Below are positions 1-61,874 of a stretch of 64,000 nt of DNA, one piece after another. The DNA is from a virus, in IMG/VR virus record IMGVR_UViG_3300013126_000016, positions 1 to 64,000 of that record; one strand, written 5' to 3'. The position numbers and the translations under genes were made by a program. The notes beneath the pieces are model-generated. The model had not been told where the DNA came from. It searched no databases and saw nothing but the letters and a program-made list of their open reading frames with translations. Each line of letters opens with the position of its first letter. The stretch's first letter is position 1.

Positions 1-3000
1 ATATCCTTTAACTGTAAAGCAACCTAGTAAACTATTATATCGATTACCTATAGAAAAAATAGGTTTTAATACATCACTATTTTTATATGGAACAGCACTA
101 TAATAAATATTTAAGTTTTCTTGGTACCCTACATACTCGAGAATGTTATAAAACATAGCAACTCTAGCACTACGAGTAAAAGGAATTACTTGAGTATCAT
201 AATAATTGTATTTTCTACCTTCTTGATACGCTAAACACTTCATAGCATCGCTAATAAATTCTGTTCCTTTATAATAATTCAAGTTTTTATTAGTTGCTTC
301 AGCTCTAGATGCAATTACGGTATCTACTATAGCGTCATTAGATGAGTTCTCACAAGCTCTTCTAAATTGACCATAAAAATTATTAAAAGGAGAACCGCTA
401 TCTTTTACACTTTGACTATTTCTATAATTAGGTTGAGAACTTATTGAAACAGGATTAGCACCACTTAAACTTTCATTATAAGTTCTATGTAAGGTAACCG
501 TAGCATTGCCAAGATTACTTCTTAAAAAATAATCTCCAGGTTCTATCTCATCAAATATTATAGGTTTAATACTAGCCCCACCTACAGTCCCACTCACAGT
601 TATTGAATCATTTGTACTATTATTAACTAATTGAAAGTCTCCAGTACTATCATTTTTGTTAGTTACTCTATAAACAGTGTTTACATTTATTCCACTTAAA
701 CTTCCTATAGACCTAAATCTTATTTTTAAGTCGTTTCTAATAAAGGTATTAGCTGCTGTTCTAAATAAAGAAGGGGTACCTGTTACTTGTGTTATTGCTA
801 GGCTACTATACTCAGCTGATACTGCGCCTTGTCTATCTCTATATATTCCAAAAGTTACTTGTTGACCTGTTCTATACAGTTGAGAATAACTATAATTAAA
901 AAACATTTCATCTGCTTCCACACACAATGTAATGTCATTATTGTTACCTACTCCAAATATTCCAAGACTCAATCCCCTATCATAGCTACTCATTTCCTTT
1001 ATTTTTGTACTGTTGGCTTTATAGAGTATCACTCTCATTCCACCAGTTTCAGTAAAATTTTGCCAAGGGCTACTGCTATTACTATAGTTTACAGAAGTAC
1101 CATTTTGACTTGTTGCTAATTGAAACCCAGTATCAGAGATTCTTTTTACCCAATAACCTGTTATTGGATGATATCTAGTAAAGTTTACTAAATTGCATCT
1201 TTCACTATAAACTAAATAAACAAAATCAGTATTCTTTAATCCATGATTATTAGTTGTATAAAATGTAAGAGGTGAACCATTAACATTAGCAAGGTTAGAG
1301 CTTGTTAATGATATGCTTACTTCTATTTTTACTGCGTCTACAGTACCATTAAACATCCCTTTATATACTGCTCTATAAGAGTTTTGAGGTACTTCTTTAT
1401 TAACAGTTAAAATACTTCTAGGAGTTCCAGAAAATTGTATGTCAGTGTACTCAGACCTTTTAATAGTTGACCCTTCTACAACTCCTGATAAAGTCGTTAT
1501 AGGCTTATTTAACATAGCATTTTCATAAGAAGTAGCCAACTTTATACTAAAACCCCAGTTTACTTGTATGGCATAATATACTGCCCCGTTTGTTAATCCA
1601 TTTAACGCACCTTCGTAAACTACAGCATCTCCTGTTCTTAAATAATGTGATGTGTACCCAGGTAACCAGTCTAAATTTAAAGTGTCTGTTCCACTCAATC
1701 CATTTACTATTAATTTAGGATTTAATTCATCTAAAACTACTTCTGGTACTACATAAACATTACTTGTATTACTAGCTGCACTAAATTGTATGGGTATGTT
1801 ATTAACAGAGTTACTCAATGTACTAGCTAATTGAAAAGTAAAACTACTGTAATTAGGACTCATAACATAATAAGTTGTTCCACTAGTAAAATTAGTTATA
1901 GAACCACTAAAAATTAATTTTACTTTTTGTCCTACTAATAACTGATGGTCTAGTTCTGTTGTGAAAATAGCCGCGCTACTTGTACCGCTTGTTACACTTA
2001 CTACGTTTTGCACTGTTTTTGTAACAACAGGCATACAGTACCCTTTTAAACCGCTAGAATATCCGCTTATATGAATCGTTGTTATAGAGGTACCACCTTT
2101 AGTATATGAAATATTAAATCTAGTAGCATCAACAATAGAGCTAACGTAGTAAACACCTGGTGTAAGATTAGTAATCGATAGGCCAGCTGGAATTGTTACA
2201 TTATTATAGTTTATAGCTTTTCCTACTACTAAATAATGATCGGGTAAAGTACCTAAAATAGACTCAGTACCATCAGCTAAAATATTTCCTGAAGGCATAA
2301 ACAACCCAGCTTCTTCCCAAGTCAATCTATAACTCCTGTCTTGCAAACTATCACTCTGTAACATAAATACAGGACTTAATATATATTTTCTCTTCTCTAA
2401 ATCACTTAGTTTATTAAATTGACTTTTATGTAATACCCATGTAAAGAAAATGTCTTGTTTATCTCCTGTACTTAAAGGAGTTATATTCAATGCTAAAGGA
2501 GAATTACTAGAGGACACCAGAGTGTAATCTTTTGAAACATCCTCCCCTTTACAATTTCTGAATTTAACCCCATCAAAATGATCCTTCCTTACATAAAACT
2601 CTGGTATCTCTAACATAGTATCCCCATGGACACCTGTCATGTCCGCATCTACCAATCCTAACGCAGGAGTTATTGCATTATCAGCATTCTGTCTATCTAA
2701 ACACTCCCACACTAATACTGTATTTACTTGACTGATTACTACACTATGCAAAACTCTATCACCTGTGTTATACGTTAAGTTAGAGTTGTAGATTGGTAAT
2801 AAAGTATTAGTTCTAGTAGTTGTGTTATAAGGATTTCTTATATAAGTATTACCTGTGCCTCCATAAAGAGGGCTGCCCCCATTGCCATACTCTGGTCCAC
2901 CTTCTTCTACTACTATCCATCCAGATTGTCTCATAAAGTTTACAGAAGAGCCTTGTGTTACATTAACTTGCAGATTATTAAAGGCATCTTCATACGTATT

Positions 3001-3687
3001 AGCTATAGAAAAAGAGGTATTGTTTATCTTAATAGCATAATAAATTCTATTGAGAGTTAAACCAGAATTTCCTACTTGTGTACATCTTATCCTACTCCCT
3101 GTTATTAGATTGTGATTACCTCTAGTAAGTAAACTGTACGTGTAAGAATAATTTGGAGATTGATCTAAACCATTAATCTGTAGCCTTGTAATCGCTTGTT
3201 TTCTTTGATATCCAATATCTGTATTTACTGGATTAGTCGATATTGTAAAGGCATTATTACCGGAAAAATCACATATAATCCTTTCTAATGTTCCAGCTAT
3301 TTTGCCTACTGTAGGATTAGTTTGACCACTACTTGTAAATCCAGCCTCACCTCGAAACGTAGTGGGATCCAAAGTTATATAATAATAAACTGTTCTGTCT
3401 TCCCACATGTTGCATACTTTTACATAACTATTAGCTGTTAAGTCTGGCTGAAATTTATATCCACTACTACTAGTTATTTCAGTGTTAGAACCTACATATC
3501 TATAATAACCATCATTAGATTGTTCATAGTAAGTATCATTTTCTTGGTTCCATATTAAAGGACACGATAATTTGGCAGACTCGCAGGTAGTTGCTATGCT
3601 ACTAGAACTAATAGCTGCTATTATATTAGGTTTTTTTAATACTAAGTCAAAACTTTGTGAGCTAGATCCAAATCCAAATGTAGGCAT
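1..3687 (-). CDS. Large virion/tail (fibre-like) protein, 3' end runs off the window start; absent from the ORF track
   Basis: ATG at 3687 (MPTFGFGSSSQSFDLVLKKPN...). The frame was open at both ends where I read it, ending ...IFSIGNRYNSLLGCFTVKGY at position 1. Repeated beta-rich modules such as NHNLITGSRIRCTQVGNSGLTLNRIYYAIKINNTSFSIA resemble those in phage tail proteins. Confidence 0.75.
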   Translation of the reverse strand, partial: MPTFGFGSSSQSFDLVLKKPNIIAAISSSSIATTCESAKLSCPLIWNQENDTYYEQSNDGYYRYVGSNTEITSSSGYKFQPDLTANSYVKVCNMWEDRTVYYYITLDPTTFRGEAGFTSSGQTNPTVGKIAGTLERIICDFSGNNAFTISTNPVNTDIGYQRKQAITRLQINGLDQSPNYSYTYSLLTRGNHNLITGSRIRCTQVGNSGLTLNRIYYAIKINNTSFSIANTYEDAFNNLQVNVTQGSSVNFMRQSGWIVVEEGGPEYGNGGSPLYGGTGNTYIRNPYNTTTRTNTLLPIYNSNLTYNTGDRVLHSVVISQVNTVLVWECLDRQNADNAITPALGLVDADMTGVHGDTMLEIPEFYVRKDHFDGVKFRNCKGEDVSKDYTLVSSSNSPLALNITPLSTGDKQDIFFTWVLHKSQFNKLSDLEKRKYILSPVFMLQSDSLQDRSYRLTWEEAGLFMPSGNILADGTESILGTLPDHYLVVGKAINYNNVTIPAGLSITNLTPGVYYVSSIVDATRFNISYTKGGTSITTIHISGYSSGLKGYCMPVVTKTVQNVVSVTSGTSSAAIFTTELDHQLLVGQKVKLIFSGSITNFTSGTTYYVMSPNYSSFTFQLASTLSNSVNNIPIQFSAASNTSNVYVVPEVVLDELNPKLIVNGLSGTDTLNLDWLPGYTSHYLRTGDAVVYEGALNGLTNGAVYYAIQVNWGFSIKLATSYENAMLNKPITTLSGVVEGSTIKRSEYTDIQFSGTPRSILTVNKEVPQNSYRAVYKGMFNGTVDAVKIEVSISLTSSNLANVNGSPLTFYTTNNHGLKNTDFVYLVYSERCNLVNFTRYHPITGYWVKRISDTGFQLATSQNGTSVNYSNSSSPWQNFTETGGMRVILYKANSTKIKEMSSYDRGLSLGIFGVGNNNDITLCVEADEMFFNYSYSQLYRTGQQVTFGIYRDRQGAVSAEYSSLAITQVTGTPSLFRTAANTFIRNDLKIRFRSIGSLSGINVNTVYRVTNKNDSTGDFQLVNNSTNDSITVSGTVGGASIKPIIFDEIEPGDYFLRSNLGNATVTLHRTYNESLSGANPVSISSQPNYRNSQSVKDSGSPFNNFYGQFRRACENSSNDAIVDTVIASRAEATNKNLNYYKGTEFISDAMKCLAYQEGRKYNYYDTQVIPFTRSARVAMFYNILEYVGYQENLNIYYSAVPYKNSDVLKPIFSIGNRYNSLLGCFTVKGY

Positions 3688-3806
3688 ATTAATTCTCTTA
3701 CTTGTTAATTTCTTTATATACTATCAATTTACTTTTTAATAAGGTTACTTAGAAGATAGCCGCGCGGCTTAACATTTAAAGTAGTACCTCTACTACTTTT
3801 TTTGTT

Positions 3807-4070
3807 ATGCCTAATACTAACCTTAAACCTGGTTTCGTCTACTTCATCGGCGATATCTACGCTAATAAAGTCAAAATAGGCTACTCTAAAAACCCTCATG
3901 GCCGCCTCAAACAAATCTCCACCACCTATCCCGGTAAACTTACTCTCCTTAAATGCATTCCAGGCTCTATTAAGGACGAACGCCTCTATCATAAACTCTT
4001 CTGCCACTCCCGCATCTGCCGTGAATGGTTTACCCTAACCGCTGATATCTCTCACTTCATTAACCGTTAA
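3807..4070 (+). CDS. GIY-YIG family protein (T5orf172/Mug113-like)
   Basis: GFVYFI...KVKIGYSKNPHGRLKQI...E..H..F...REWF pattern. Confidence 0.8.
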   Translation: MPNTNLKPGFVYFIGDIYANKVKIGYSKNPHGRLKQISTTYPGKLTLLKCIPGSIKDERLYHKLFCHSRICREWFTLTADISHFINR

Positions 4071-5113
4071 TGAATCTTATCTCTATGAACTCCGCCACTT
4101 ACTCCGCCACTTACTCCGCCACTTACCCCGCCACTAATAACTCTAAGCCTAAGATTAACTTTCCTAGGCTAGAGGCTATTAAAAAACTAAAATCTAGTAT
4201 CTCTACTAGAAACCGCTCTACCTCAGATTTTATTAAACCTAACGGCCGCAGCGCAGACTTTTGCCTCTCTATCGCTTATGGCTGTCTTCTTGGTTGCTCT
4301 TATTGCTATGTACAACGACATAACTTAAACGGCAACCCGCTAACAACCTATTCAAACAAAGACGAACTGTTCGTCGCAATCCTTAAGCACCATAACCTCC
4401 TTTTTACTCCTAAACCTCCTACTTTTAAACCCTGTGATTCTAACTATCCCTCCGGTGAATCTGACGTAATCAACTACACCTACGATGTTGGAGAATCTTC
4501 TGATGTTTTACTTAGAGTAATCTCCCCTGACCTTAACTGGTGGCTAACTAACCTAATAAATGTACCCTACCTTAAACCTACTTTTGCAACTAAAATCTCA
4601 ACCCCCGTTGCTATCTCCCGCTTAATAGACTGTCCTATACCTCGTAAAGCACGTATCCGCGCTTCTGTAGCCCCACAGAACATCATAGACCAAACAGAAA
4701 TTATGACTGCTAAAGTAACAGACCGTATAGCTGGTCTTAACTTAGCCTACGAAAAGGGTTATGAATGTCATCTCAACTTTAGTCCTATCATAGTAACCCC
4801 TACTTGGGTTGAGGATTACTCTAATCTCATGATTCTATTAGATGAGTTATTATCTCCTAAAGTAAAAGAACAACTGCACTGTGAGGTTATATTCCTAACC
4901 CATCACACTGCCCTCTCTAACTGGAATGCCAAAAACTTCCCTTTAGATAGCGAATCCCTACTTTGGACTCCTGAAAACCAGGAATTTAAAACCAACGGGC
5001 GCGGCTACGATGTTAAACGCTATAAGTGGCAACTTAAATCCCGTTATATCTCTACTTTTAAACAACTCTTGTCTAAATATATGCCTTACTGCACCATCCG
5101 TTACATCTTTTAA
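4070..5113 (+). CDS. Spore photoproduct lyase family radical SAM protein
   Basis: CxxxCxxC motif GCLLGCSYCY preceded by KPNGRSADF; YDVGESSD, FATK, RIRAS, HLNFSPII, EVIFLTH and a terminal IRYIF match the SplB-like family. Confidence 0.85.
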   Translation: MNLISMNSATYSATYSATYPATNNSKPKINFPRLEAIKKLKSSISTRNRSTSDFIKPNGRSADFCLSIAYGCLLGCSYCYVQRHNLNGNPLTTYSNKDELFVAILKHHNLLFTPKPPTFKPCDSNYPSGESDVINYTYDVGESSDVLLRVISPDLNWWLTNLINVPYLKPTFATKISTPVAISRLIDCPIPRKARIRASVAPQNIIDQTEIMTAKVTDRIAGLNLAYEKGYECHLNFSPIIVTPTWVEDYSNLMILLDELLSPKVKEQLHCEVIFLTHHTALSNWNAKNFPLDSESLLWTPENQEFKTNGRGYDVKRYKWQLKSRYISTFKQLLSKYMPYCTIRYIF

Positions 5114-5293
5114 TGTACTTTTACCTTTAGAGTTCTATAAAAAACTCTAAAGGTATATCTGTATATCTATTAAAGTACCTGTAAAAAAGATTAAAAAAAG
5201 AAGTTAGTTTTTCTAAGTAGCGTTAAGCAATTCCCCTCTTAACGCTTTTTCTATCTTCTGTTACTTTAGTTTTAGTTTACTTCTTTTATTTTT

Positions 5294-6703
5294 ATGACTC
5301 CTTCTATAGTTAGCAGACTTGAATTCAATCCCTCTACTTTTCTTAAAAATCTTAAAAGCATTTACTTCCCTGATAAAAAAATTCCTATCGGTAACGCTCT
5401 TAAATACATATACCTTGAACAAGTTACTTCTTCTGAAGCTTTACTAGTGTGTTACATAGGACAAGGGTGGTTTTCTGTCAGATTAGATTGTGTTGGGTTT
5501 ATTGGTACTTGTTACCTATTTGATGGACAAGATGCTTTGGATAGATTATCTAAAAGTCTTTCTGCTATTAAAGATAGCCCCGCGCTTCAATTCTTCCAGA
5601 CCCCTAACTCTAAAATGTCTGTTAACTTTGTCTTCCCTAAATCTAAATCTAAAAGCAATATTGCTATCAATACCTATAACAACGATTACTCTGATTTTAC
5701 TGAACCTTGGTTAACCAACTCCTCTCTCCCACTCTCTCAACTTATTCCTATCCCTAAATCTTCCCTTAAATACTTTACCTCCGGCCTCCGTATCGCTAAC
5801 TCTTTCTCTTCTCTCTCCTCTGATACCTTCGAAAAACCTGTTTGGCTCTGGTCTATTGACTCCTCCCTTTGGCTCGTTTGCACCGAAAAGTCCGGCATCA
5901 ATGGTGTCTCCCTTCTCTGCATCAAATTATATGACTGCACTTTTAATACCTTTAACATAGGTATAATGGGTAAGCAATTAATAAAGTCTGCTTACTTATT
6001 CTTTTTGTTTAATGAAATATCGTTGTGTTTAAATAGTGAAAACCAGTTCATTATTAAATCTGAGGAGTCTATGGCTATTCTAACTACTTTTAATCCTAAT
6101 CTTTATCCTGTCTATTCTAAAGGCTTTCAGAACTTTTTTATAGACCGCTCCCCTAATAACTTTCTCTGTCATCTTACTTTCTTTTTAGAAGACTTAATAA
6201 CTGCTGTTACTCTTTCTAGTCCTAAAAGTAATGATCTCAGCAACGATATTGTTCTAGAACTCTCTGATAGTCGTTCTAGTTTTATTCTTTCTAAAAGAGC
6301 TGATGCTACTAAACTAGAAAAATCTGAAATAGAAGTAGTAGATATGTTAGGCTCTCAGCAATGGGTAAATGTTGTTTTGTGTCATACTTATCTTTTACAA
6401 GCTCTATTAGCTTTAAAGAATAATTATCTTAGAGAAGAAACCTCAGAAAGTAGCCCCGCAAACTTTGACCCCGATGATTTTGAACAATATTCCTCTGATT
6501 CCCCTGATTCCCTTGATTCCTTTGATTCCCCTGATTCTCCTGATTCCTCTAAAAAGCTAATTACCCTTACTCTTGATTCTTTTAGAGAACATTATGTCCT
6601 CTACGTTTCTTCTTCTACTTTTACTAATCCTTTAATTAATCGAGATTTTTGTGCAACAATAATTTGTAGACCTCTACAACCTGATTCTATCGATGACCAC
6701 TAA
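5294..6703 (+). CDS. Divergent DNA polymerase III beta sliding-clamp-like protein
   Basis: C-terminal third (LEDLITAVTL...DIVLEL...FILSK...KSEIEV...VVLCHTYLLQALLAL) parallels DnaN domain III; a clamp loader is encoded in the same window. Confidence 0.45.
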   Translation: MTPSIVSRLEFNPSTFLKNLKSIYFPDKKIPIGNALKYIYLEQVTSSEALLVCYIGQGWFSVRLDCVGFIGTCYLFDGQDALDRLSKSLSAIKDSPALQFFQTPNSKMSVNFVFPKSKSKSNIAINTYNNDYSDFTEPWLTNSSLPLSQLIPIPKSSLKYFTSGLRIANSFSSLSSDTFEKPVWLWSIDSSLWLVCTEKSGINGVSLLCIKLYDCTFNTFNIGIMGKQLIKSAYLFFLFNEISLCLNSENQFIIKSEESMAILTTFNPNLYPVYSKGFQNFFIDRSPNNFLCHLTFFLEDLITAVTLSSPKSNDLSNDIVLELSDSRSSFILSKRADATKLEKSEIEVVDMLGSQQWVNVVLCHTYLLQALLALKNNYLREETSESSPANFDPDDFEQYSSDSPDSLDSFDSPDSPDSSKKLITLTLDSFREHYVLYVSSSTFTNPLINRDFCATIICRPLQPDSIDDH

Positions 6704-6878
6704 TCGCTTCCGCTATCCTGAGTACTTACATTGGAATTCTCTTATTCATTATTTACAAGTAAATGATGTACTTACTTATAAAAATAGTGAGGGAGAAACC
6801 AAACGTATTAAAATTGTGCAAATAGTTCAAGGAGTTACTGATTCTTATCCAAAGCTAGTCTACAAAATCTTAGATTAA
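6693..6878 (+). CDS. Hypothetical protein
   Basis: ORF tightly packed between its neighbours. Confidence 0.55.
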   Translation: MTTNRFRYPEYLHWNSLIHYLQVNDVLTYKNSEGETKRIKIVQIVQGVTDSYPKLVYKILD

Positions 6879-6882
6879 TACT

Positions 6883-7743
6883 ATGTCTCTACCTCCTACT
6901 TACTGTAAGCAACCTCATGACGTTATTGAATTTGACCGTTATTGTAATCATTGCGAACTTGGTCAACGATTACAAAAACATAACAAACGCGTTCTAGAAC
7001 TAGAACAAAAAGAAAACAAAACAAACAATGATACTGCTTATAGAAAAAAAGAACCTTTACTTTATAGCGTAGGGGGTGCAGGCCCTAACTTTTCTGACTT
7101 CTCCTCTATCCGCCTTATTATCCTCTCTGATTTCCCTGGCTCCTACGAATCAGACTCTAAAAACCTTTTCCCTATGGTCGATGTCCTTCGCGATCAAGTA
7201 CCTCGACGTAATGGTCTTGTTAAACGCCGCAATGCAGGCTCTATGCTCCGCTTTGCACTCCATTCTATGTACAACCTTGATACTTATCATGATTGTTGGA
7301 TAACTAACACACTTAAATGCACTCCTATGGATACTACTCCACTAGAAAGTAAGCATGTAAAACCTTGTGTAACTAAGTGGTTATCTAATGAGTTTTATCT
7401 TATAGACCAATACTTACCTAACATTCCTTTACTAGTGGCTGGTAGTCTTGCTTTTAATTCTTTAAAGTTTTTCTATAAGGAAGATAGTGTTTGGTTGAAT
7501 AAATTGTCTTTTAAAGATAGCCGCCGCCGCTCTGACCTCAAAATAGGCCTCACTAAACGCCCTTTTGTCGTTACTTATAACCCCGCCGCTATCGCTCGCT
7601 CTGAACCTACTATCACCACCTCTTTTAAATCCTCCCGCAAACTCTCCCTCCCCTCCCATAATGAGTGGCTTTACCCCCCTCTCCCCGGTAGCCCCTTATC
7701 CTCTTTTATTAAAGACCTCTTTATGCTCTCTTCTTTCCTTTAA
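6883..7743 (+). CDS. Uracil-DNA glycosylase family 4-like protein
   Basis: CxxCxL Fe-S ligands, LIILSDFPG (motif A equivalent), AGSML, WITNTLKCTP, PC..WL..E, TYNPAA (motif B equivalent). Confidence 0.75.
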   Translation: MSLPPTYCKQPHDVIEFDRYCNHCELGQRLQKHNKRVLELEQKENKTNNDTAYRKKEPLLYSVGGAGPNFSDFSSIRLIILSDFPGSYESDSKNLFPMVDVLRDQVPRRNGLVKRRNAGSMLRFALHSMYNLDTYHDCWITNTLKCTPMDTTPLESKHVKPCVTKWLSNEFYLIDQYLPNIPLLVAGSLAFNSLKFFYKEDSVWLNKLSFKDSRRRSDLKIGLTKRPFVVTYNPAAIARSEPTITTSFKSSRKLSLPSHNEWLYPPLPGSPLSSFIKDLFMLSSFL

Positions 7744-7747
7744 TACT

Positions 7748-10878: not shown

Positions 10879-10962
10879 TAATCTTAAAGGTAGCCGCGCG
10901 GTGCTTTACTATATATAAAGCACCGCGCGGCTTCTTTTGTCCCTTAATCTTATTCCTTTGTT

Positions 10963-11595: not shown

Positions 11596-11664
11596 TATTA
11601 CTAGTTCTCCTATAGTTTTGTTTGAGTTAACTTATCAGGTAGCCGACCGGCTACCCTTTTATTT

Positions 11665-13576: not shown

Positions 13577-13590
13577 CCGCGCGCTTTCTT

Positions 13591-50400: not shown

Positions 50401-53400
50401 TTAGCTCTCTTCTTAAAGTAGAAGTTGATGGAAGTCTTCGTAATCTATCTTCTAGTCTATCAAAACCAGTAGAAATATAAGAAGATATTCCAACAAAACT
50501 CATAACAGTAGAAAGAGAATTATCTTTAGAGAAAGAGAGAAAATGTTTAGGAAAAGATAAGAAAGAGAGTGAAAAAGCTAACTTTTCACTTTCGGATATA
50601 TCTTCTTCAGTTAGAGGAGTTTTACTACTAATATAATTTATACTGCTCCTACGAGCTTCAGGTAAATAAGAATTAAAAGGTTTAAGTCTAAATTCTAAAG
50701 GTGCAGAAGGGATAGAGCCAGTACCTAATATAGGGAAAAACTGAAAACCTGCTCCTATAGTTAATGAATTACCAGCTGGGTCTAGTTTAGATACAAAAGT
50801 TAGCTGAAAGATAGGGTTAGGTATTTGTTGAGAGAAGTTGTAATTAACTTGTTCTCTAGCGACTCTACCATAGGTTAGATTATAAGCTGCTAACATGGAG
50901 AGATTTAACATAGAATATTCTTTAATAGTAAAAGGTTTATCTTGTTGTAATCGAGATACAACACCCTTAATTAAAGATAGAGATGAGAGGTAATTTTCAG
51001 AGTTAGGGGAAGAGCCTGTAGGAGAATTACCTGAGATAAACTTATTAAGATTTAAGATATTAGCTGCGGCGTTAAATATAAACTGAGTAGCTAATAAAGT
51101 AAGGGAACCTCCTATTAGAGCTCCCAACCATCCAAATTTAGTAACAGGTCTAGAACTAGAAACATTCTTTAATCTTGTTAGAAGTTGCTGTTGTTCTGTA
51201 GTTAAATTAGTAAAAGGATTATCTAATAGGGAAGAAGTTGGGTCATTAATACCAGTAGCTTGCCTAACAATATTAAGATGTTGTAGTATTCCATGTGGAT
51301 AGAAGCGTTGTGTTCTTTCACTAAAAGACTTTTCAAAGATACTAATACCAGTACTAGTAGTATATTCAAAACTAGGGAGTAGGTGTCCACCTATAATAAA
51401 ACCAGACGCAACTAAAGGATATTTTATATAACCAGGTATGCCACCAGAATATTTTATGTTAGCAAACTTACGATCATTGCCCTCTTTAGTTTTATAGCTT
51501 GTAAGATTAAAATCAACTAATATCTGGTTAATAAGATCTCCTGAGTTACGCATTATATGAGGGTCAAACAACTTATCAGCTATAAGAAGAGGACCAACAG
51601 AAAGAAGAAAACCACGAACAGACTTAAAGATATTAGGTTTACCAGCATCTATAGAAGTAGCATAATTATAACGACTTTGAACGATAGTATCGTACTGTTC
51701 TCTGCGTTGTATATATAATTCTAATAATCGTCTAGAGCGGGGTTCTCTTAATAAGTTTTGGAGGGATCTGCTTAAAACACCTACATTATTAGGGTCACTA
51801 CCACCACCATATAATTGTTCTGTTAGCTGTCTTAATAATTCTGTATAATCAGGAGCACCAGCAGGATTTATTGGTGTAGTTAGATTTAAGCGTCTAAAGT
51901 TTGCATTTTTTAGTATTCTTTCTACTCTTGTGTATATTTGTTTTTCTATAGAAAATAAAGAATTCTCTAGAGTGTAAATTCTAAAGTTTTCAAAAGCTTC
52001 TTGATAGATATTAGAGTTAGTTGATTGTTTAAAGATAGTTTGAGCAATCCTTTTACTAAAAGCAGTAAGACCGCTAAAACCTGGAGCCAAGAGATTTTTA
52101 AGGGAATAATCTTCAATATCAGTACCTGCGCTGCGGTCAACTCTGAGGGAGCGGATGCCAATAGAATCACGATAAGGTTTAAAATAAAGTAAAGGATTAG
52201 CAGGGATAAACTCAGATATTTTATCTAATAATTCAGCGATGGATTCTAATCTTGAATAACCGTAGTTTTTTATTTCAAAATCGCTAAATCTTCTATGGAA
52301 ACTACCATCAGGAGTCTGTACTATTTTATAGACAGCTACAGGGTTTTGAGACAATAAATTTCTGAGGTTTTCTAAGTTATTATTAAAGATCCTTCTAGAT
52401 TCGTCATCAGGCACAACAGAAATAGATTCTAAGATAGGAAATACAATATGATTAAAATTAGAAAGGTCTAACTGTCTAAATCTAGAAAGTTGTCCAAACC
52501 AACCTCTATCAAAACCTAGAGTAGAAGAATTATAAGACCTAGAAAGGTCAAGTTCTGCAGTAGTAGTGTTAATACCTAAAACTTCGCGTTGAACTCGAGT
52601 TAACTCATCAGAACTAAGAGTAGTAGGAGTTGTTGAAACTGAAGGTGTAATATTTTCTGAGACATGAACAATTAATCTATTAATAGCAGAACCCTCTGGG
52701 GTTACATTATTGCTACCGTATATTACGTCTAACTGTAAACGGACATCGTTATTTATACCACTATAATCAGGAGTATAACCTTGTATTTCAGCAGCTCGTT
52801 GAGTTACGTAATTATAATAATCTTCTACAAACTTACCAGCATTAAGAGAACTTATATTTGGGTCAGTACTAATAAATGAGTTTTGTAGGTTTGTAATAAT
52901 ATCTATAGATTTAATAAATTCATTAGAAAAGAAAAAGTCTCGTATATTTCTATCACTTAAGTTAGTAATATCAGAATCAGTAAATAAAGTGCTACTAACC
53001 TTTTCAATACCAACTTCTTCAAACTGAGCTTTAGCGATAGAAAAAGTATGAGATACACCAAAGTAAAAAGCTAAAGAATAAGCTGTAGAAGAAACCGTCA
53101 TAGCAGAGGAGTAGATAGTGTTTTCAAACACTCCTCTTTCTGGATCTGCTTCGTAAAAAGATTTATGAAATTTTGATATAGAACCTTTTTCTTTTCCGGA
53201 GCGTACTCTTCTATAAAATTCGCTAGAATAGAATCCAGTAAAAGTATCTAATACACGTCCTACGCCTTTAGCCAGTACACCAGTCAGACCAGAACCTTCA
53301 GTATAGATATCAGTAAATATTCTATTTAGAATATCTCCAAAACCGGGTAAATTAAGACTGTAATCAGCCCATTTAGCTATAGTACCTTTAAAACCTGTAG

Positions 53401-54283: not shown

Positions 54284-54303
54284 AGTTTAGCAGTAACACG
54301 CTG

Positions 54304-55302
54304 TTAGTATCTACTAGAAGTATTAATGTTATATTCTATTAATTGGTCTAAAGTAAGAGAAGGTTGATATTGAACAGACATAGTAGACTGACCTAATATA
54401 AGAGAGTTAGAAAAGATATTAAGCATGTTCTGTTCAAAGATAAAACTATCTACACCACTAACAGAATTAACTGCCCAAACAAAATAAGGTAGAGCTATTT
54501 GAGAAGAGCTATAAAGAAGAGTAAGGGACTGAAACAAGGGTTTACTTCTAACTATCCAATTTTGCATATCAAAAGGTTTAGAATTACCACGGCGGTAGTA
54601 CCTTACCTTATAGCGTCCACGAGGGATAAAAAGGTCAGAAGGAATAAGTTCAAACTTAACTAAACCGTCAACTGGTATCTCAACAATAAAAGGTTCTCTA
54701 ATATGACTAAAAACTCCTGGTCTACAAGAAGCAGGGGGAGTAATATGTAAATAATAATCTGACTTAGGAATTACAGCACTAGAAGGAGCAGAATCATCAT
54801 TAAGGATACTACAAATAACAGGAGAGATAGTAGCTATAGCGTAGCCTAAGCCTGGTTGAATAGTAATGATTACTGTTTCATTTTCTTCTTGATCAGTATC
54901 TCCTATAGGGGATATAAAAAGGATTGAAGTTGGGGTATTTTCTGTAAATACTATAGTACCAGAAGTGCTATTAAAGGTAGCCGCGCCGGACTGAGTATAA
55001 TCAGCTGGATCAGTTCCATTGGCTTCAAATCTAGCAGTCCCGCCAACTGAGAAATTAACAGTTAAAGGTAGAGTAAGGTCACCGTTGCGAGTAAAGGTAA
55101 AAGCAAACTTAGTGTTTGTGTTTTCATTTAGTCTAGTAGGGGATACAGAAAGGGAAACGCTAGGAGAGTCGTTAGGGGTTATTCGATATGGAGGAACAAA
55201 CTGAATAGCTATAGGAGAATAAACTAAAGGAAGAGATGGACTATAGAAAAGATTATTATTAGTTATAAAAGGTACATTATTGCCATCTACGAATAAAGTC
55301 AT
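54304..55302 (-). CDS. Calx-beta domain virion protein
   Basis: FTFTRNGDLTLPLTVNFSVGGTA...DYTQSGA...GTIVF...DTDQEENETV...ILNDD. Confidence 0.75.
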   Translation of the reverse strand: MTLFVDGNNVPFITNNNLFYSPSLPLVYSPIAIQFVPPYRITPNDSPSVSLSVSPTRLNENTNTKFAFTFTRNGDLTLPLTVNFSVGGTARFEANGTDPADYTQSGAATFNSTSGTIVFTENTPTSILFISPIGDTDQEENETVIITIQPGLGYAIATISPVICSILNDDSAPSSAVIPKSDYYLHITPPASCRPGVFSHIREPFIVEIPVDGLVKFELIPSDLFIPRGRYKVRYYRRGNSKPFDMQNWIVRSKPLFQSLTLLYSSSQIALPYFVWAVNSVSGVDSFIFEQNMLNIFSNSLILGQSTMSVQYQPSLTLDQLIEYNINTSSRY

Positions 55303-55387
55303 AATAGCGGGTATAAGAGGTGTAGATAAACTTAAAGTATAGGTAAGAGGGAATAAAGCAGAAAAAAGGGTAGCCGCGCGGCTACCT

Positions 55388-55425
<38 letters not shown>

Positions 55426-55427
55426 CC

Positions 55428-56243
55428 TTAAATAGGTTTAAATTCTTCCCAATCTATAGAAAAAGTATGTTGTAATTCATCAGATTCGATATTAGAGATG
55501 AAACCGTCATTTTTGAAGATTAATTCAAAAAGATTAGATTTCTTATCATCGGAGTACACAGCATAGGCTTTAAAATCTGATAACCTTAAAGATCTTTGAG
55601 CGACTCGGTGTTGGATTCTTCTAATAAAATAGTTACTTTGAGTTTCTACAATAAACTGTATGTCTTTCTGTTGATAATAATCTATAAGAGTATCAGCCAA
55701 GTAACATTGATTAGTAGGGTCTAAAGAGTTCTCTGGATTTTCTAGAATGATAGTAGTGCCTCTATCTACATACTCTAATAATAAAAACAACTGTAAAAAA
55801 GAAGTTACTGAATCCCCTAACTTATTTACTTCAACCTTAGCGTTATTCAAAGACTTAGCAATGATTTTATACTTATTAGGTTTAGTAGTAGATTGTTTTA
55901 AGTGAATAGTACGTAAGAGATTTAAATCAGAGAGTTTAGTAGAGAGAGTGGATTGAAAGAAGGGGCGGTGTTTGTCTAGTGCGATAAAAAAGGGATAAAC
56001 AAACTGACCATTAACACCAGTAGAAAAAGGAAGGGAGTTAGTTTTAAGGTAAAAGTAGCTAGGGACAGTTCTTCTGTTAGAGCTAAGCATAAGAACATGA
56101 CCCTCTGGGGAGTTATAATAAATATGTTTTAGTAAAGACGTTTTACCTGTGTTGTTATTGCCTGTAAAAACAGTAATACCTGAAAGTTCAAAAGTAAGGT
56201 CTTGAAAAGACCTGTGTTTAGAGATAGTATGGTTTGTAAGCAT
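55428..56243 (-). CDS. ABC/AAA_21-type ATPase (DUF3696-like)
   Basis: FTGNNNTGKTS, IILENPENSLDP..Q, FIVETQS. Confidence 0.75.
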   Translation of the reverse strand: MLTNHTISKHRSFQDLTFELSGITVFTGNNNTGKTSLLKHIYYNSPEGHVLMLSSNRRTVPSYFYLKTNSLPFSTGVNGQFVYPFFIALDKHRPFFQSTLSTKLSDLNLLRTIHLKQSTTKPNKYKIIAKSLNNAKVEVNKLGDSVTSFLQLFLLLEYVDRGTTIILENPENSLDPTNQCYLADTLIDYYQQKDIQFIVETQSNYFIRRIQHRVAQRSLRLSDFKAYAVYSDDKKSNLFELIFKNDGFISNIESDELQHTFSIDWEEFKPI

Positions 56244-56280
56244 AGGTAAAACTAAGAAGCATTATATATTCAAGTATAAT

Positions 56281-58071
56281 CTAATCATCTTGAGACCACA
56301 CAGGGTCTGAGAAGGAGTTATATTTCCAGCGACGGTAAGAGCGGCGGACTTGTTTAGTTAGTTCTTTAGAAGAGTTAGTAAAAGTGAGGTCAGAGTCAGA
56401 GAAATTAGTATTTACAGACCCAATAGAAGAGGATTTAGGAGTTTCGGAAGTAGAGAAATCAGACATAAGATGCCATATAACAGAGACTACAGCATCAGCA
56501 ATATCTTTAGAACCATCCTTACGATGGTCTATCTTTTTTTGATTTATAAGGCTAATACCAAATAATTCTTCTTTAAGGCGACTAGTCCAAGGAGAATCTA
56601 CAGGTAGTATTACTCTATTTTCGTGAAGCATCTTACGAAAGAAATCGTAAAGTTCTAATTGTTTTGTTTGACTAAAAGTCATAACAGAAGCGTTAAGACC
56701 AGAGTTTCTAAGATGTTGAATAGTTTCAGGATTATAATGGTCAGAAGTAATTTTGCTTAAAGGTCTAGATTTGTTTACTTCATATATACAACTGTAAACA
56801 TTGCTAATACCGACAGTTTGTTCTGGGCTATTATCCCAGACTAAAAGACCGTCTATAATACCATAGCGTTCTTTGTTTATAACTTCCCTATGACCAAAAG
56901 CAACAGCAAAACTATCAGTTACAAAAGCTGGATCTAAATGCATAGCAGAGACTAGAGAAGTAGATAGTATCTTTTTAATATTAATTCTTACAAGTTTATC
57001 AGAACCTACTTCTGTACTTAAAGAAATAGAAGAGTTACCTCTAAAAGAGCGGACTATTTCGTCATCATCAAAGAAAGAGTAGAGTCGGTTATAACGTACG
57101 CCTTCAAATTCTAGAGCTGCTTGGCGGGGATCTAAATGGTATTCTGCTTGTACTACAGGATTATCTCTAGCAGCATGAACAGGATTAAGATCCCAGGAGC
57201 GAAGTCTGAAACCCAACCAACCTGGAGAAGATTTAGAGACTTGGTATAACTTTTGTATAGCGTCACCTTCGCACCAAGCAGAAGATATAGCAATACGTTT
57301 AGCATCACAACCAAAAGTAACACCAGAGATACCAATGTTTGACCATAATTTAAGAGCGTTACTTTCAGAATCGCCGCTAGATATTTTAGATTCTTCATCA
57401 AACCTAGCAACTTCATCCATCAATAAACATATTACTGAAGACCCTACTTGAGACGCAGAATTAGAATTACCGCTATATATGTACAAGAGTTTATCAGGAT
57501 ACTTAATCTCTTCCTCTCCTATAATAATCTTTTTTTTATCTACTAAACGTTTAATATACGGAATATGTTCTAAAAGTCCTTTTATTTGAGAAAATATAGT
57601 TCTCTTAGTTTGTGTAGCACTAGTAGCTATACAGTATATAGATATAGCAGTAGATGTAGCTATATTATAATACATTTGAGGACTTTTCATAGCGCATAAC
57701 CTGTAGAATTCGTAAGCACCAATTAAAGAAGCCAAGAAGCTTTTAGAACCCCGCCGGCCAGCTTCAACACAGAGAGATTGATAAGTAGTACCTGGGATAT
57801 AAAAGGAGGGGTTAAAAGAAAGTCTATCAAGAGCAAACCAAGATTCTAATATAGCCTGTTCATCTTCATTAAGAGACAGGCCATAAAAAGTTTTTAATAA
57901 AAGAACTTGACGGGGGTTTAGTTCTTTCACACCCCAGGTTTCTTTATTTATTTCATTAGCTATAAAACTTAGAATATCAGAAGATTGAGGAACTCCAATT
58001 TCTTCATTAATAGAGTCTACAATACTTTCTATAAAACTACTAACTTCTAAAGTAAAATCCCTGGCTGCCAT
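56281..58071 (-). CDS. Terminase large subunit
   Basis: AGRRGSKS Walker A, CLLMDE Walker B, ISS coupling motif, MHLDPA nuclease motif, KIDH...SKDIADAV. Confidence 0.85.
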   Translation of the reverse strand: MAARDFTLEVSSFIESIVDSINEEIGVPQSSDILSFIANEINKETWGVKELNPRQVLLLKTFYGLSLNEDEQAILESWFALDRLSFNPSFYIPGTTYQSLCVEAGRRGSKSFLASLIGAYEFYRLCAMKSPQMYYNIATSTAISIYCIATSATQTKRTIFSQIKGLLEHIPYIKRLVDKKKIIIGEEEIKYPDKLLYIYSGNSNSASQVGSSVICLLMDEVARFDEESKISSGDSESNALKLWSNIGISGVTFGCDAKRIAISSAWCEGDAIQKLYQVSKSSPGWLGFRLRSWDLNPVHAARDNPVVQAEYHLDPRQAALEFEGVRYNRLYSFFDDDEIVRSFRGNSSISLSTEVGSDKLVRINIKKILSTSLVSAMHLDPAFVTDSFAVAFGHREVINKERYGIIDGLLVWDNSPEQTVGISNVYSCIYEVNKSRPLSKITSDHYNPETIQHLRNSGLNASVMTFSQTKQLELYDFFRKMLHENRVILPVDSPWTSRLKEELFGISLINQKKIDHRKDGSKDIADAVVSVIWHLMSDFSTSETPKSSSIGSVNTNFSDSDLTFTNSSKELTKQVRRSYRRWKYNSFSDPVWSQDD

Positions 58072-58076
58072 AACAT

Positions 58077-58499
58077 TTATAGAGAATTAAAAAAGAAGGT
58101 TATTACTAATTGATTAGGTTCAATAGTTATACTATCTCCGGAGGTTATTTCTAGAGGTTTAAGTAAAGTAGAATAACTTATCATAGTTTTAGTATTATTA
58201 TTTCCATACCAGAAAGAAGTAAAGTTAATAGTTACAGGACTTATAGTGCTAGAAGTTGTAATAGTGTTGGAGTTAGTTATAAAACTAGAATCAGAGTTTA
58301 CTAAAGGGGTGAAGGGTATATAAGATGGACTAAAAAGAAAATTAGAGTCAGAGTTATTAGTAGAAGGATTAAAAGAGTGGAAACATATAAACCTAGAATC
58401 TGAAGAGGGTATAGTTAAAGAAGTTAAGTTTGTAGGGTTAATAGAACCACCAAAAGAAAGCACACTCAATACAGAATTAGAAAGGGAACTATTAAACAT
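58077..58499 (-). CDS. Putative tail/baseplate structural protein
   Basis: NSNTIT...L.KPLEITSGDSITIEPNQLVIT; structural gene context. Confidence 0.5.
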   Translation of the reverse strand: MFNSSLSNSVLSVLSFGGSINPTNLTSLTIPSSDSRFICFHSFNPSTNNSDSNFLFSPSYIPFTPLVNSDSSFITNSNTITTSSTISPVTINFTSFWYGNNNTKTMISYSTLLKPLEITSGDSITIEPNQLVITFFFNSL

Positions 58500-58500
58500 T

Positions 58501-60783
58501 TTAGATAATTGTTATTTTACAAACAGAGTTTTTACAGACTTTTATATTAGAGCTAATATTTAAAGGACCGAGACAACATATAAACAAATCATTTAATTTA
58601 AAAGAAAGATTGTAGTTAGAATAAAGTGGAGACCAAACACCTACAGGCATAATAAGGTTAGTAATAAAAGTATAACCTGTAGGGCAATAAGTATTAGAGT
58701 GTAAAGGCATTAAAGGCAGAAATTCAGAGACAGGATAAACATATTTATCATTAGAAAAAACAGTACCAGTAGAATTAGAGTCAATTGGGAACCCAGGAGT
58801 AGTTCTTTCTGCTAGAGAGTTATATTTTTTAGTAATAGAATCAATAGTAATAGTATTTTCTTTTGGATAGAAAGCAATAGCTGTGTATTGATCTTCATAT
58901 AGAACCTTATTTCTATAGTCTAATCTATTAACTAAACCTGTATAAATAGATTTGTCAGAGTAAGTTGAAGAATTTAAATCTTTTAAAGAAAGATAATAAG
59001 GTGTAGAACTGTACTGAACAGAAAAGTTTTGTTTTAATAAGAAGTTAAGTTTGTTTAAAAGAAAATCTTGATGAGAAGAGGTAAGGGGGAATTGTATAAA
59101 CTCTTTTATAAAAGGGTCTAATAAAGTATTAATTATAGGTTTTATAATATATTCAGGTAAAAAATTAGCTATAGGAAGCCATAAATTAATTAGAATACGT
59201 AAGAGAAAGCCAGAAGAATAAAAAATAGGTAAACGAAGTAAGCTGTAAACTATAAAGAAATTAAAATAACACTGAGAATAAGTATATATAAGAGAACCTA
59301 TAGAAGTAGACTTGTCTTCCTCTTTATCAGGGTTAGACCATTCAACACCTTCTGGTAGAAAAGATATAATAAGGTCTTTAGAATAGCTACAGAAAGCTTC
59401 TGCTTCTAAAGCAAAAGTATCAAATGCAGAAGGAGTCACTAAATCTGATTTAAAATGGAAACAAGATAAAGGAACAATGTTATAAATAGGCTGTGAAGTT
59501 ACTTCATTAAATATAGACTGGTTATAGAAAGTTTCTAGCAATTGAACAGTCCAATAAGGTCTGTTATTAAAAGAATAGAGATTTATAAGACTAGCAATAA
59601 GAAAATCATCATCAGAATAAGTTGTACTGTTAAGGCGATTTTTACTGTAAAAAGAGATAAGACTTAAAGAAGTAGTAGGGGAGAACTGACAATGCCACCA
59701 GAATTTATAAGTACAGATTGTTAAACTAGACGATTCATTAAAGAGAGAATAAAATAGATTGTCTGGTAATTCAGGTAAATTATTGAAAGAAACAAAAAGT
59801 CTAGCTGCTTTTTCATGAATAGTAGAGTCATAATCTAATTGTAGATAATAGTTAAAGAGTAAAGAAGCTATAACAGAAGTTTTAAAGGAAGTAGAAAATA
59901 AATCAACTTCGCCATTAGTGTAATTTTCACAGCAAAAGCCAGTGGAGTAATCAAAGGAATTACAGGTAATATAACAAAATGCTTTGCATAAGTTTAAGCA
60001 GTCTACATAAAAGTTAGATATAAGATTACTAAAATAATTAATATTAGTAAGGTAATGAAGGGCTTTAGAAATAGAGAGACCTAAGAGAGCATTTTCATAA
60101 AAAGAGAAATCAGAAGAGGTGTTAGAAGGATCTAAACTAGAAAGACCAGAAGAGATAGGGGGGGAGAAACGGAATCTATTTTCTTGGAAAGTGATTAAAG
60201 ATTTAGTAGAAGATATCTGGAGTAGTTCTATAAGTTGAGAAACTACAAGTTCTGGTTTATTAAGAGAGCAAGCAAGGATAAGACCCCAAGAAGAGGAAAT
60301 TAAAGTTTTAGTAGAAGAATTAGAATAAGTGGAAGATAAGATACCTTTATTCTTACTAGGAATAATATGTTTAACGCTCGAGTCGTTATCTACTAAATAA
60401 CAATAAACTTCTACATTAGGATAATTAGGTAAAGAGTTATCAAAATCTCTAGTAAGAGTAGATTCTGTATTTTTAAGATATAAAGCAGGACTTAATTTAG
60501 TGAAGCGAGACTCAGAGTTATTAGTTACAGTAGAGAGGATATAATCGTAGCGAATAGGAGTTCTAAAAGAAGTTTTAGAAGAAGTTAAAGTAGAATGAGA
60601 GCATAGAAAAGGCTGAGAAAAAGAAGGAGTTTTAAAGTAAGTAGTATAGCTAGGGTTTAATAAAGACAGTGATATATTTCTAGAGCGTGAATACAGTTCT
60701 GAATAGAAAGATGAAGGGAATAATTCAAATATAGAAGTAATAGATGAACCGTTTATCTTAGTAAACCAATTATTATAAGTCAT
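58501..60783 (-). CDS. Hypothetical baseplate-region protein
   Basis: 760-aa ORF directly downstream of baseplate J. Confidence 0.55.
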   Translation of the reverse strand: MTYNNWFTKINGSSITSIFELFPSSFYSELYSRSRNISLSLLNPSYTTYFKTPSFSQPFLCSHSTLTSSKTSFRTPIRYDYILSTVTNNSESRFTKLSPALYLKNTESTLTRDFDNSLPNYPNVEVYCYLVDNDSSVKHIIPSKNKGILSSTYSNSSTKTLISSSWGLILACSLNKPELVVSQLIELLQISSTKSLITFQENRFRFSPPISSGLSSLDPSNTSSDFSFYENALLGLSISKALHYLTNINYFSNLISNFYVDCLNLCKAFCYITCNSFDYSTGFCCENYTNGEVDLFSTSFKTSVIASLLFNYYLQLDYDSTIHEKAARLFVSFNNLPELPDNLFYSLFNESSSLTICTYKFWWHCQFSPTTSLSLISFYSKNRLNSTTYSDDDFLIASLINLYSFNNRPYWTVQLLETFYNQSIFNEVTSQPIYNIVPLSCFHFKSDLVTPSAFDTFALEAEAFCSYSKDLIISFLPEGVEWSNPDKEEDKSTSIGSLIYTYSQCYFNFFIVYSLLRLPIFYSSGFLLRILINLWLPIANFLPEYIIKPIINTLLDPFIKEFIQFPLTSSHQDFLLNKLNFLLKQNFSVQYSSTPYYLSLKDLNSSTYSDKSIYTGLVNRLDYRNKVLYEDQYTAIAFYPKENTITIDSITKKYNSLAERTTPGFPIDSNSTGTVFSNDKYVYPVSEFLPLMPLHSNTYCPTGYTFITNLIMPVGVWSPLYSNYNLSFKLNDLFICCLGPLNISSNIKVCKNSVCKITII

Positions 60784-60785
60784 AA

Positions 60786-61874
60786 TTAACTAGGGTATGA
60801 TACATTAATAGAGGATAATACTATAATCTCATTAATATCTGCTGTAACATCAGAGGAAGGTTCAAGGACTGTACAATCTTGGACGAGAGGTAGAACAGAG
60901 AATTTAATAAGACTTATGGGTAAAGGTTGGTTAATATCAAGAGAGTTAACGGAGGAGTAGAGAGCTTCAGATATTTGACTATTAAGGGAGGAGATATTAT
61001 AATCAGAGCTATAAGGTGTAACTTTAATAGAGATAGAAACTGATTTAACGGTAGCGTTATTAACGGAAACAATAATACCAGCAGGAATATAAGGTTCAAG
61101 ATAGGAAGTAAGAGAATCAACTTCTATAGAAGAGTAAGAATTAAGAAAATTAACCCATACTTCTACGATACCGGGTATTCTAGTTTTAACATAACTTCTA
61201 GTTACGCCAGTATATGCTTGGAGTACACTTTTTAGAGTAGAAATAGAGTAAGGATGATTATTAGAGTATAAATAATAAAAGTAGCGGGCGCGGAGGGAAA
61301 AATCTGATTCTTCATCACTACCTCCGAAAAACCCTTCAGAGAAAGAAGTTTTAGAACTAGCTTTACCTACAAAAAAACGTATAGTAGGCTCAGTAGATAT
61401 TAACTCCGAGTTAAACAAGGGGGTTCCAGCACTAAGGTTGTAAGAAGAACCAGGTACAAATGAAGCAACGTTAACTAAAGTATTCTGCTCTGGATTAGTA
61501 GAAGTTGAAACAGCTGATAATGTATAAAATTGAGAACCTGAATTAGTATCTGTTAACACAGTACCCTGCTGTACTAAAATAGATTTAGAAGTAGGTAATA
61601 TAGTCACAACACCTTCTGAATAAGAAGGAGAAGTGCGGGTAACCAAATAAGAAGTAAGGGAATCAAGGTCGGAGCCAGAAGCTGTAAGGGGAGAATAAGA
61701 AGTAATAAGGGAAGCTAAGCGGAGTTCAAGGTTTTGGATAACAGCGGAGTTAGCTCTAGCAAGAGTATAGAGAGGGGAAGATGGATTAGGATCTAAAGAA
61801 AGGGGGCTGGAAGTAGATCTTATAGTAGAAAGATATTCATCAAGGATAGATTGAAAGTTTCTAGGAGAGAACAT
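60786..61874 (-). CDS. Baseplate J/gp47-like wedge protein
   Basis: TASGSDLD, GT.L, PGSSYNL.AGT, GGSDEESDFSLRAR, PGIVEVWV, PAGIIVSV. Confidence 0.85.
   Translation of the reverse strand: MFSPRNFQSILDEYLSTIRSTSSPLSLDPNPSSPLYTLARANSAVIQNLELRLASLITSYSPLTASGSDLDSLTSYLVTRTSPSYSEGVVTILPTSKSILVQQGTVLTDTNSGSQFYTLSAVSTSTNPEQNTLVNVASFVPGSSYNLSAGTPLFNSELISTEPTIRFFVGKASSKTSFSEGFFGGSDEESDFSLRARYFYYLYSNNHPYSISTLKSVLQAYTGVTRSYVKTRIPGIVEVWVNFLNSYSSIEVDSLTSYLEPYIPAGIIVSVNNATVKSVSISIKVTPYSSDYNISSLNSQISEALYSSVNSLDINQPLPISLIKFSVLPLVQDCTVLEPSSDVTADINEIIVLSSINVSYPS

Follow-up and report, generated by a model that had tools for sequence, protein, structure and literature searches.

Abrupt changes of sign of the G/C skew are normally read as the marks of one replication origin and one terminus. 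The window analysed here, the first 64 kb of the 87,014-bp virus record IMGVR_UViG_3300013126_000016 (GC content 34%), carries a GC-rich palindrome whose many copies are flanked by small skew switches at the silent positions of the coding sequence. These switches share with those of origins and termini the abrupt change of sign at a defined point, the location at silent sites and the independence of gene orientation. They differ by their number and their scale, since more than 30 small sites are involved, the effect of which fades within about 400 nt and is superposed on two large strand domains.

As an element, the palindrome resembles the intrinsic terminators by its GC-rich stem-loop, its sense-strand T-run and its position at gene 3' ends, and some copies are flanked by an A-run in the manner of bidirectional terminators. 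It departs from them in that its stem sequence is conserved even between phages that have hardly any DNA similarity, a good T-run is missing from several copies, there are copies within open reading frames (ORFs) and between divergent starts, and the skew step of its flanks is absent at nine annotated terminators of T5. The promoter-early stem-loops (PeSLs), which Arbiol et al. reportedly described in 2010, flank small genes in T4-type phages. Here too small accessory genes are enclosed by copies of one stem-loop, in a variable region whose gene content depends on the strain, but no conserved promoter was seen beside the phage stem, and the sigma-70-like promoter sites are not enriched (62 against 65.1 expected). 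To our knowledge, no flank skew has been described for PeSLs.

The DNA uptake sequences of Neisseria and Haemophilus are over-represented words that occur singly within genes and, when paired in inverted orientation, form terminators, and the same two arrangements of a short over-represented word are found in the phage. However, no bacterial genome holds many copies of the phage palindrome: a search of 185,579 species genomes returned 21 loci, at most two per genome and mostly in GC-rich bacteria, and a host repeat, an uptake sequence or a repetitive extragenic palindromic (REP)-type repeat was rejected as its source. We know of no use that a phage would have for uptake. Finally, the single-strand initiation hairpins (G4 and phiX174 types, mitochondrial OriL) and the T5-type site-specific nicks are sites where a strand starts or is interrupted. 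They have in common with the present sites, known here from assembled contigs, a hairpin or a GCGC-containing sequence, but the spacing here is irregular and the sign of the skew is opposite to that expected from simple exposure and deamination. A full-text literature search, screened at the level of the search results, yielded no work on a motif of this type or on phage genomes with a sawtooth skew.

A recurrent palindrome and its stem-loop

The element is built on the 14-mer TAGCCGCGCGGCTA, for which 22 matches with at most three mismatches were counted in the 87-kb record against 0.25 expected; none of 100 shuffles held as many, and its sub-words are the most over-represented 8-mers of the genome. 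The first-pass annotation of this DNA, which had noticed a GC-rich motif recurring in an AT-rich genome, was right on this point, and the eight intergenic sites that it listed are all stem-loops. The 14-mer is the core of the stem-loop GGTAGCC-N4-GGCTACC, usually located between an A-run and a T-run, and in the context AAAGG-TAGCC-GCGC-GGCTA-CCTTT the stem counts 7-9 bp and the loop 4 nt. The stem is constant and the loops differ (usually GCGC, but also GACC, TGCC or ACAA), while other variants extend the stem to 12-17 bp. Contexts of 120 nt fold into GC-rich stems of 7-17 bp, with a stem probability of about 1 for 10 of the 16 cores and of about 0 for three cores, the latter value probably resulting from misassigned symmetric pairs.

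Twelve copies in the whole record have at most two mismatches, and eight of them lie 5-52 nt from the 3' end of a called gene. The four others are located between divergent starts (3757), within an ORF (25735), after a small uncalled ORF (19206) and, beyond the window, within the 5' part of an ORF (82004). The 12 nt that follow the stem contain from four to nine T in these 12 copies, and a terminator scan requiring at least five T in 8 nt picks up eight stems of the motif type. The T-rich tails follow the strand of the gene, as illustrated by the copy at 55371, which stands behind a - strand gene and has its T-run on the - strand. At 13574, 23081 and 29054 the stop codon is supplied by the TAG of the motif, and the wobble pairs, four in three stems, are all T-G on the sense strand. 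Their gene-end position, their sense-strand T-runs and wobbles and their TAG stops thus make the copies fit terminator-type RNA hairpins, and it is probable in our opinion that the palindrome is a rho-independent terminator or a 3'-end hairpin that punctuates the transcription units and brackets accessory cassettes. That the stem sequence is so strictly conserved suggests that some factor reads it.

The bracketing is found in the accessory array at 10.9-19.4 kb, where nearly every gene is enclosed by one of ten stem-loops, and the palindrome is kept at the homologous place in related phages. It also occurs many times, bracketing small genes, in a second phage, a 56-kb metagenome contig that has only two DNA matches to the record (298 and 62 nt) and proteins 34-44% identical to those of the record (34% for a shared fibre-like protein); at least ten full copies are present in a 10-kb locus of this second phage (L025). 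Integron attC sites were rejected, since the stems of 18-41 nt are devoid of GTTRRRY cores and the only recombinase seen is of the serine type, and the joints and loose contig ends at 16900-16936, considered as rearrangements, are other copies of the hairpin.

Some sequences adjoining the palindrome may be mentioned. Four genes that follow copies of it begin with Met-Pro encoded by ATG CCT (3807, 11665, 13897 and 23138), and a perfect (TAAC) x 9.5 microsatellite at 55388-55425 adjoins the copy at 55371. In G004 (loci L013-L015), six half-site-like matches at positions 60-830, at the contig end, include five identical words and lie 123-197 nt apart, which suggests a tandem repeat.

The composition step at silent sites

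The step was defined as the purine fraction of the + strand in the 300 nt after a site minus that in the 300 nt before it. At the full copies it amounts to -0.128 at third codon positions (negative at 12 of the 14 measurable copies) and to -0.145 at four-fold degenerate sites. The partial copies give -0.050 (n = 17) and -0.119, respectively, for a standard deviation (sd) in random sets of 17 of 0.026 at third positions and of 0.035 at four-fold sites, where the 0.1% quantile is -0.099. By the same measure, 46 same-strand gene boundaries without a hairpin show no step (-0.001 at third positions and +0.025 at four-fold sites), and neither do the annotated T5 terminators (+0.011 and +0.012), a small control of nine sites, six to eight of them measurable, on which a generic terminator effect was rejected. 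The drop from purines to pyrimidines announced in the first-pass annotation is therefore real at both classes of positions, and it is more than an effect of gene starts. The accompanying change in amino-acid use is present but weak, about two standard errors for a single-site sd of 0.08: the Ser/Pro/Leu/Phe fraction rises by 0.013 at full and 0.059 at partial copies, and the Glu/Lys/Gly/Arg fraction changes by -0.046 and -0.037.

The step is mainly a passage from G to C. The C fraction of four-fold sites, 0.03-0.04 immediately before the palindrome, is 0.20-0.21 beyond it, and that of G falls from 0.17 to 0.04; the C content just 3' of the sites (0.20) is an enrichment, the reference being about 0.09. 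At the silent positions of about 150-400 nt on each side, the 5' flank is G-rich and C-poor and the 3' flank C-rich and G-poor, whichever strand is read, and this roughly two-fold symmetric pattern fades within about 400 nt. The palindrome thus stands at the centre of a motif-specific, symmetric footprint at silent sites. The footprint recurs in the related genomes, with four-fold steps in 300-nt windows of -0.068 in G001 (n = 8), -0.092 in G002 (n = 16) and -0.098 in G004 (n = 17), the last being nearly the same phage as G002, for a random sd of 0.033-0.042. In 150-nt windows and at third positions, the full copies of G000 are negative in 7 out of 7 cases (purines -0.219; G minus C -0.240) and the partial copies of G002 in 17 out of 19 (-0.127).

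Partial copies inside ORFs were sought as 9-mer half-sites with at most one mismatch. Their number, 18, exceeds what is obtained after synonymous shuffling of whole genes (4.25, sd 1.90) or of local stretches of 100 codons (5.98, sd 2.18), and none of 200 shuffles reaches it in either design, so that the in-ORF copies are enriched over codon-shuffled controls. Twelve of the 20 in-ORF sites proposed there pass the half-site test, and those at 7518, 10056, 20598, 27593, 36023, 37801, 43927 and 61281 fail it. The accompanying argument that terminators do not explain the in-ORF copies is a fair one, though some of these copies may be relics of former gene ends. A flipping of the half-site orientation with the skew domain was discarded as not clean, with four left-type half-sites in pyrimidine-rich and four in purine-rich sequence, against one and seven for the right type. 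Right after the partial copy at 6451, ORF 5294-6703 contains a 9-nt repeat, ATTCCCCTG x 6.6 (6489-6550), that codes for a Ser/Pro/Asp-rich segment.

Candidate causes of the footprint

The local steps are superposed on a large-scale pattern. Between 3.8 and 23.85 kb the four-fold purine fraction of the + strand is 0.05-0.40 per gene, with the exception of ORF 22883-23083 (0.54, on 13 sites), and from 23.9 kb on it is 0.54-0.85 across genes of both strands; the large-scale skew is therefore tied to the DNA strand, whichever strand is coding. A conserved gene oriented opposite to its neighbours shares their strand composition in G002 and G004, and its homologue in G000 is intermediate (0.42, against 0.73-0.79). 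Because the skew spans both gene orientations and because the opposing gene matches its neighbours in G002 and G004, we read these domains, with their switches at about 3.7 and 23.9 kb, as a replication-type strand feature separate from the local steps. The palindrome copy at 3757 lies right at the sharp 3.7-kb boundary.

The explanation that we place first, without holding it for established, is that the footprint results from a strand-symmetric process acting on DNA and centred on the palindrome, and not from regular lagging-strand priming. Replication forks or repair tracts would meet or start at the palindrome, so that the copying or exposure of either flank would have a prevailing direction. 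On this view the partial copies within ORFs would be remnants of such sites, or less potent versions of them. Since leading strands are usually G-rich, the observed polarity would be that of forks converging on the palindrome. A DNA-level cause is preferred because the largest step, -0.58 at 3757 (four-fold purines 0.52 in gene 1-3687 and 0.05 in gene 3807-4070), lies between divergent starts and not at a gene end, and because the step persists at partial copies that lack a good hairpin. It is conceivable, though we put less trust in this narrower proposal, that the palindromes act as landmarks in the DNA and that the two strands receive the same treatment there, the sites being either two-way fork barriers or points where synthesis or repair would be started by the terminated transcript or by the hairpin.

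Several observations weigh against a DNA-level cause. The data in its favour are assembled DNA contigs from lake metagenomes, in which the genes were called by a simple ORF rule. The single steps are noisy (sd 0.11-0.14), and the site at 26920 reaches +0.35. For the most part C is exchanged for G or A, which is no classical damage signature and would fit selection as well as mutation. The partial copies of G001 give a step near zero in 150-nt windows (-0.008, n = 10), and two in-ORF copies that are also present in this genome lie within stretches whose identity is about 90% or higher over their whole length; the whole stretch being conserved around both, there is no sign of an extra constraint on the copies themselves. 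In the second phage taken together with a further metagenome contig, L022, the 300-nt four-fold test detects no step (+0.009, n = 33, of which 29 sites come from the 56-kb contig and 4 from L022). The cassettes of the second phage are only 300-600 nt long, and at its full copies the step appears in narrower windows only (150 nt, third positions: purines -0.088; G minus C -0.210; n = 7). Finally, segmentation based on third positions yields 22 segments, where controls yield 8-12, and the strongest internal changes (8581, 8953, 9637 and 9853) are abrupt, of both signs and located in the helicase gene, where third-position purines take the values 0.48, 0.14 and 0.69 in successive segments. The helicase gene shows a pattern of blocks and not a pure sawtooth.

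Selection acting at the RNA level is a possibility to which we give less credit than to the DNA-level process. The 3' ends of the messages would be kept G-rich and C-poor and the 5' parts of the following ones C-rich and G-poor, owing perhaps to Rho-type back-up termination on C-rich RNA or to the advantage of open 5' regions for ribosome loading, and the symmetry would be a coincidence. Such selection would suit the location of the copies at gene ends, with sense-strand T-runs and wobble pairs, and the distance from the stem to the next start codon, sometimes as little as 10-18 nt. The exchange of C and G at silent sites is also compatible with a selection on composition, and purines climb by 0.0197 ± 0.0056 per kb along the hairpin-bounded units. 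It leaves unexplained, however, the absence of any step at the 46 hairpin-free boundaries and at the T5 terminators, as well as the steps at in-ORF partial copies and at the copy 3757, away from gene ends. A metagene analysis, moreover, detects no general 5'-to-3' gradient in genes. The folding of the hairpin is also independent of its flanks (stem probability 0.769 with native, 0.739 with swapped and 0.752 with mixed flanks; p = 0.94), which led us to reject an insulating role of the flanks. An extended pairing of the flanks was discarded in the same way: folding of ±200 nt gives 38.9 site-crossing pairs against 29.8 (sd 17.3) at random sites, with equal energy, and cognate left-right flank duplexes (-25.5) are no better than non-cognate ones (-28.7).

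The first-pass annotation had itself proposed fixed lagging-strand priming at a spacing similar to that of Okazaki fragments, or site-specific nicks, the decay of strand exposure generating the sawtooth. The specificity of the step for the motif and its fading over a few hundred nucleotides speak in favour of this proposal, as do the repeated rises and falls of four-fold C in the unit 3771-10890 (rises near 5575, 6451, 7518, 8977 and 10056), the presence of a DnaG-type primase gene and the nick consensus Pu/GCGC given in the annotation of the T5 record, GCGC being the usual loop here. Nevertheless we judge it unlikely, for the full copies are distributed according to the gene ends and the transcription direction, two of the sites just named (7518 and 10056) fail the motif test, and the regular spacing of 1-2 kb does not extend to the genome. 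The gaps between the 12 copies with at most two mismatches have a coefficient of variation of 1.19, and two of them, of 22,589 and 26,633 nt, are without a full copy. Five of these 12 copies are gathered in the 8.7 kb between 10.8 and 19.5 kb, where 1.2 are expected, and the spacing of about 1 kb in this array is set by the length of the accessory genes, nearly all of which stand between stem-loops. If the deamination of exposed DNA drives the skew, the sign is wrong as well: by our derivation it predicts a loss of C just 3' of the site, where a gain is seen.

The palindrome could also be a recombination junction, the stem-loop serving as a swap point for cassettes and the steps being inherited from modules with different histories. 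This view draws on the bracketing of nearly every gene at 10.9-19.4 kb and the same arrangement in a distantly related phage, on the patchiness of the helicase gene at silent sites, and on a strain present in run X4, which is 93-98% identical to the record elsewhere, with a divergence of 2-9.5% according to the segment, and gives no cover at 85% identity or more over about 13.1-16.9 kb. This gap suggests a turnover of accessory cassettes between strains. Random histories, however, should produce steps of both signs, contrary to the predominance of negative steps at the full copies and at the partial copies of G002, and the ends of the covered pieces in run X4 (13093 and 17212) do not fall at hairpins, so that we regard recombination as a quite improbable cause of the footprint. 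All things considered, the strand-symmetric process at the DNA level comes first, followed by selection at the RNA level, then by priming or nicking, and recombination history comes last.

The phage record and the meaning of the palindrome

The coordinates of the palindrome copies, of the in-ORF partial copies and of the strand domains are collected in the table below.

Table. Palindrome copies, half-sites and composition domains of the 64-kb window (a dot stands for features without an assigned strand)
Feature	Position	Strand	Context
Palindrome, 1 mismatch	3757..3770	.	Between divergent starts 3687 (-) and 3807 (+); window's sharpest composition switch
Stem-loop, 17-bp stem with motif arms, T-rich tail	10892..10932	+	14 nt past end of gene 10348-10878
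Stem-loop GGTAGCC-GACC-GGCTACC, T-run	11638..11655	+	Next ATG 11665
Truncated copy	13574..13587	+	TAG = stop of gene 12599-13576
Stem-loop GGTAGCC-TGCC-GGCTACC, T-run	13870..13889	+	Next ATG 13897
Palindrome, 1 mismatch	14966..14979	+	9 nt from end of gene 13897-14964
Variant stem-loop AGGTAGCC...GGCTACCT	15792..15815	+	Right past end of gene 15089-15787
Perfect copy AAAGGTAGCCGCGCGGCTACCTTT, then T-run	16905..16928	+	
Perfect copy	18022..18043	+	Past end of gene 16988-18007
Related stem-loop, 17-bp stem, one T-G wobble	19185..19222	+	After small uncalled ORF
Stem-loop GGTAGCC-ACAA-GGCTACC, T-run	19385..19406	+	Upstream of gene 19431
Perfect copy, T-rich tail	23077..23098	+	TAG = stop of ORF 22883-23083
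Full copy, one T-G wobble, without T-run	25732..25752	+	Inside thymidylate-synthase-like ORF 25341-26798
12-bp stem-loop, right arm GCGCGGCT, two T-G wobbles, T-run	26910..26937	+	After gene 25341-26798
Copy, 1 mismatch	29054..29067	+	TAG = stop of gene 28244-29056, purine-rich E/K tail
Copy, 1 mismatch	32782..32795	+	17 nt from end of gene 32020-32772
Perfect copy, - strand T-run	55367..55388	-	After - strand gene 55428-56243; homologous place kept in relatives
In-ORF partial copy TAGCCCCGC	5575..5583	.	Ser-Pro-Ala, same frame as 6451 and 8977; four-fold step -0.16
In-ORF partial copy TAGCCCCGC	6451..6459	.	Ser-Pro-Ala frame
In-ORF partial copy, helicase gene	8977..8990	.	51 nt past putative intein end; third-position change point 8953; four-fold step -0.35
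Other in-ORF half-sites, at most 1 mismatch	1968..54986: 1968, 4654, 4999, 26602, 30471, 39741, 41219, 45625, 49642, 54978	.	
Half-site	36717		Last 30 nt of ORF 36260-36751; outside the count of 18
Pyrimidine-rich + strand domain (four-fold sites)	3807..23854	+	All genes + strand
Purine-rich + strand domain (four-fold sites)	23888..64000	.	+ genes to 36.9 kb, - genes beyond

The record is probably an incomplete fragment. ORFs are open at both of its ends and point toward each other (- strand, 1-3687; + strand, 85,431 to the end), and joining the end of the contig to its start, as a test of circularity, adds six codons followed by two stops. The conclusion is drawn because the + strand ORF leaves the far end and because the relatives, 36-71 kb long, are themselves rated 28-50% complete. 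G002 has a 4483-aa gene at the place that matches the ORFs of the record ends, and the silent-site skew of these end genes is near neutral (0.52 here and 0.49 in G002). The terminase is 36% identical to that of the Microcystis phage Ma-LMM01, and the sequence is present in DNA runs from lake and freshwater metagenomes; no RNA run is listed for it. A megablast search of 18 kb against a phage collection gave no match, Rfam returned no match and no tRNA gene was found.

Among the proteins encoded are a DnaG primase, a thymidylate-synthase-like fusion, both ribonucleotide reductase subunits, a spore-photoproduct-lyase-like protein, a protein of the UDG family, a PD-(D/E)XK nuclease and a serine recombinase, together with a weak RuvC-like match under the Pfam cut-off. 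A search with the primase returned one distant locus, which was not used. In the thymidylate-synthase-like ORF 25341-26798, this domain is fused to a pterin-binding DUF4346 domain, a fusion that is perhaps a sign of a modified pyrimidine in the phage DNA, which would be of relevance to mutational spectra. The helicase gene 7748-10351, for which Pfam reports Helicase_C only, probably carries an intein: an apparent 311-codon insertion (7994-8926) begins with Cys, ends with His-Asn, is followed by Thr and contains LAGLIDADG-like blocks, and the proposal also takes account of hits in phage families. A search with the helicase part found no relatives among the viral contigs or in the records of the related phages. 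On the - strand, 38492-54283 is a single ORF of 5263 aa, with a 5171-aa homologue of 30% identity in G004. In a 1.4-kb stretch without long ORFs, 18084-18448 comprises a promoter-like site, a 43-nt unit repeated 4.4 times (18210-18398, 93% matches) and a hairpin with a T-run; without a match in Rfam, these elements may form a repeat RNA or an array of iterons.

In conclusion, our observations describe a conserved palindrome of 18-24 nt accompanied by a repeatable local switch at silent sites, and found again, with a weaker and window-dependent step, in a phage whose DNA has almost nothing in common with that of the first. If the palindromes are indeed landmarks at which both DNA strands are handled alike, a terminator-like element reused at every operon end would leave its mark on the silent sites of the genome as dozens of small skew switches. 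Is the cause of the footprint mutational or selective? If mutational, these sites would report where DNA strands start, stop or break, and would offer a handle, from sequence only, on the replication and repair of an uncultured phage. If selective, the flanks of a terminator can constrain several hundred bases of coding sequence.

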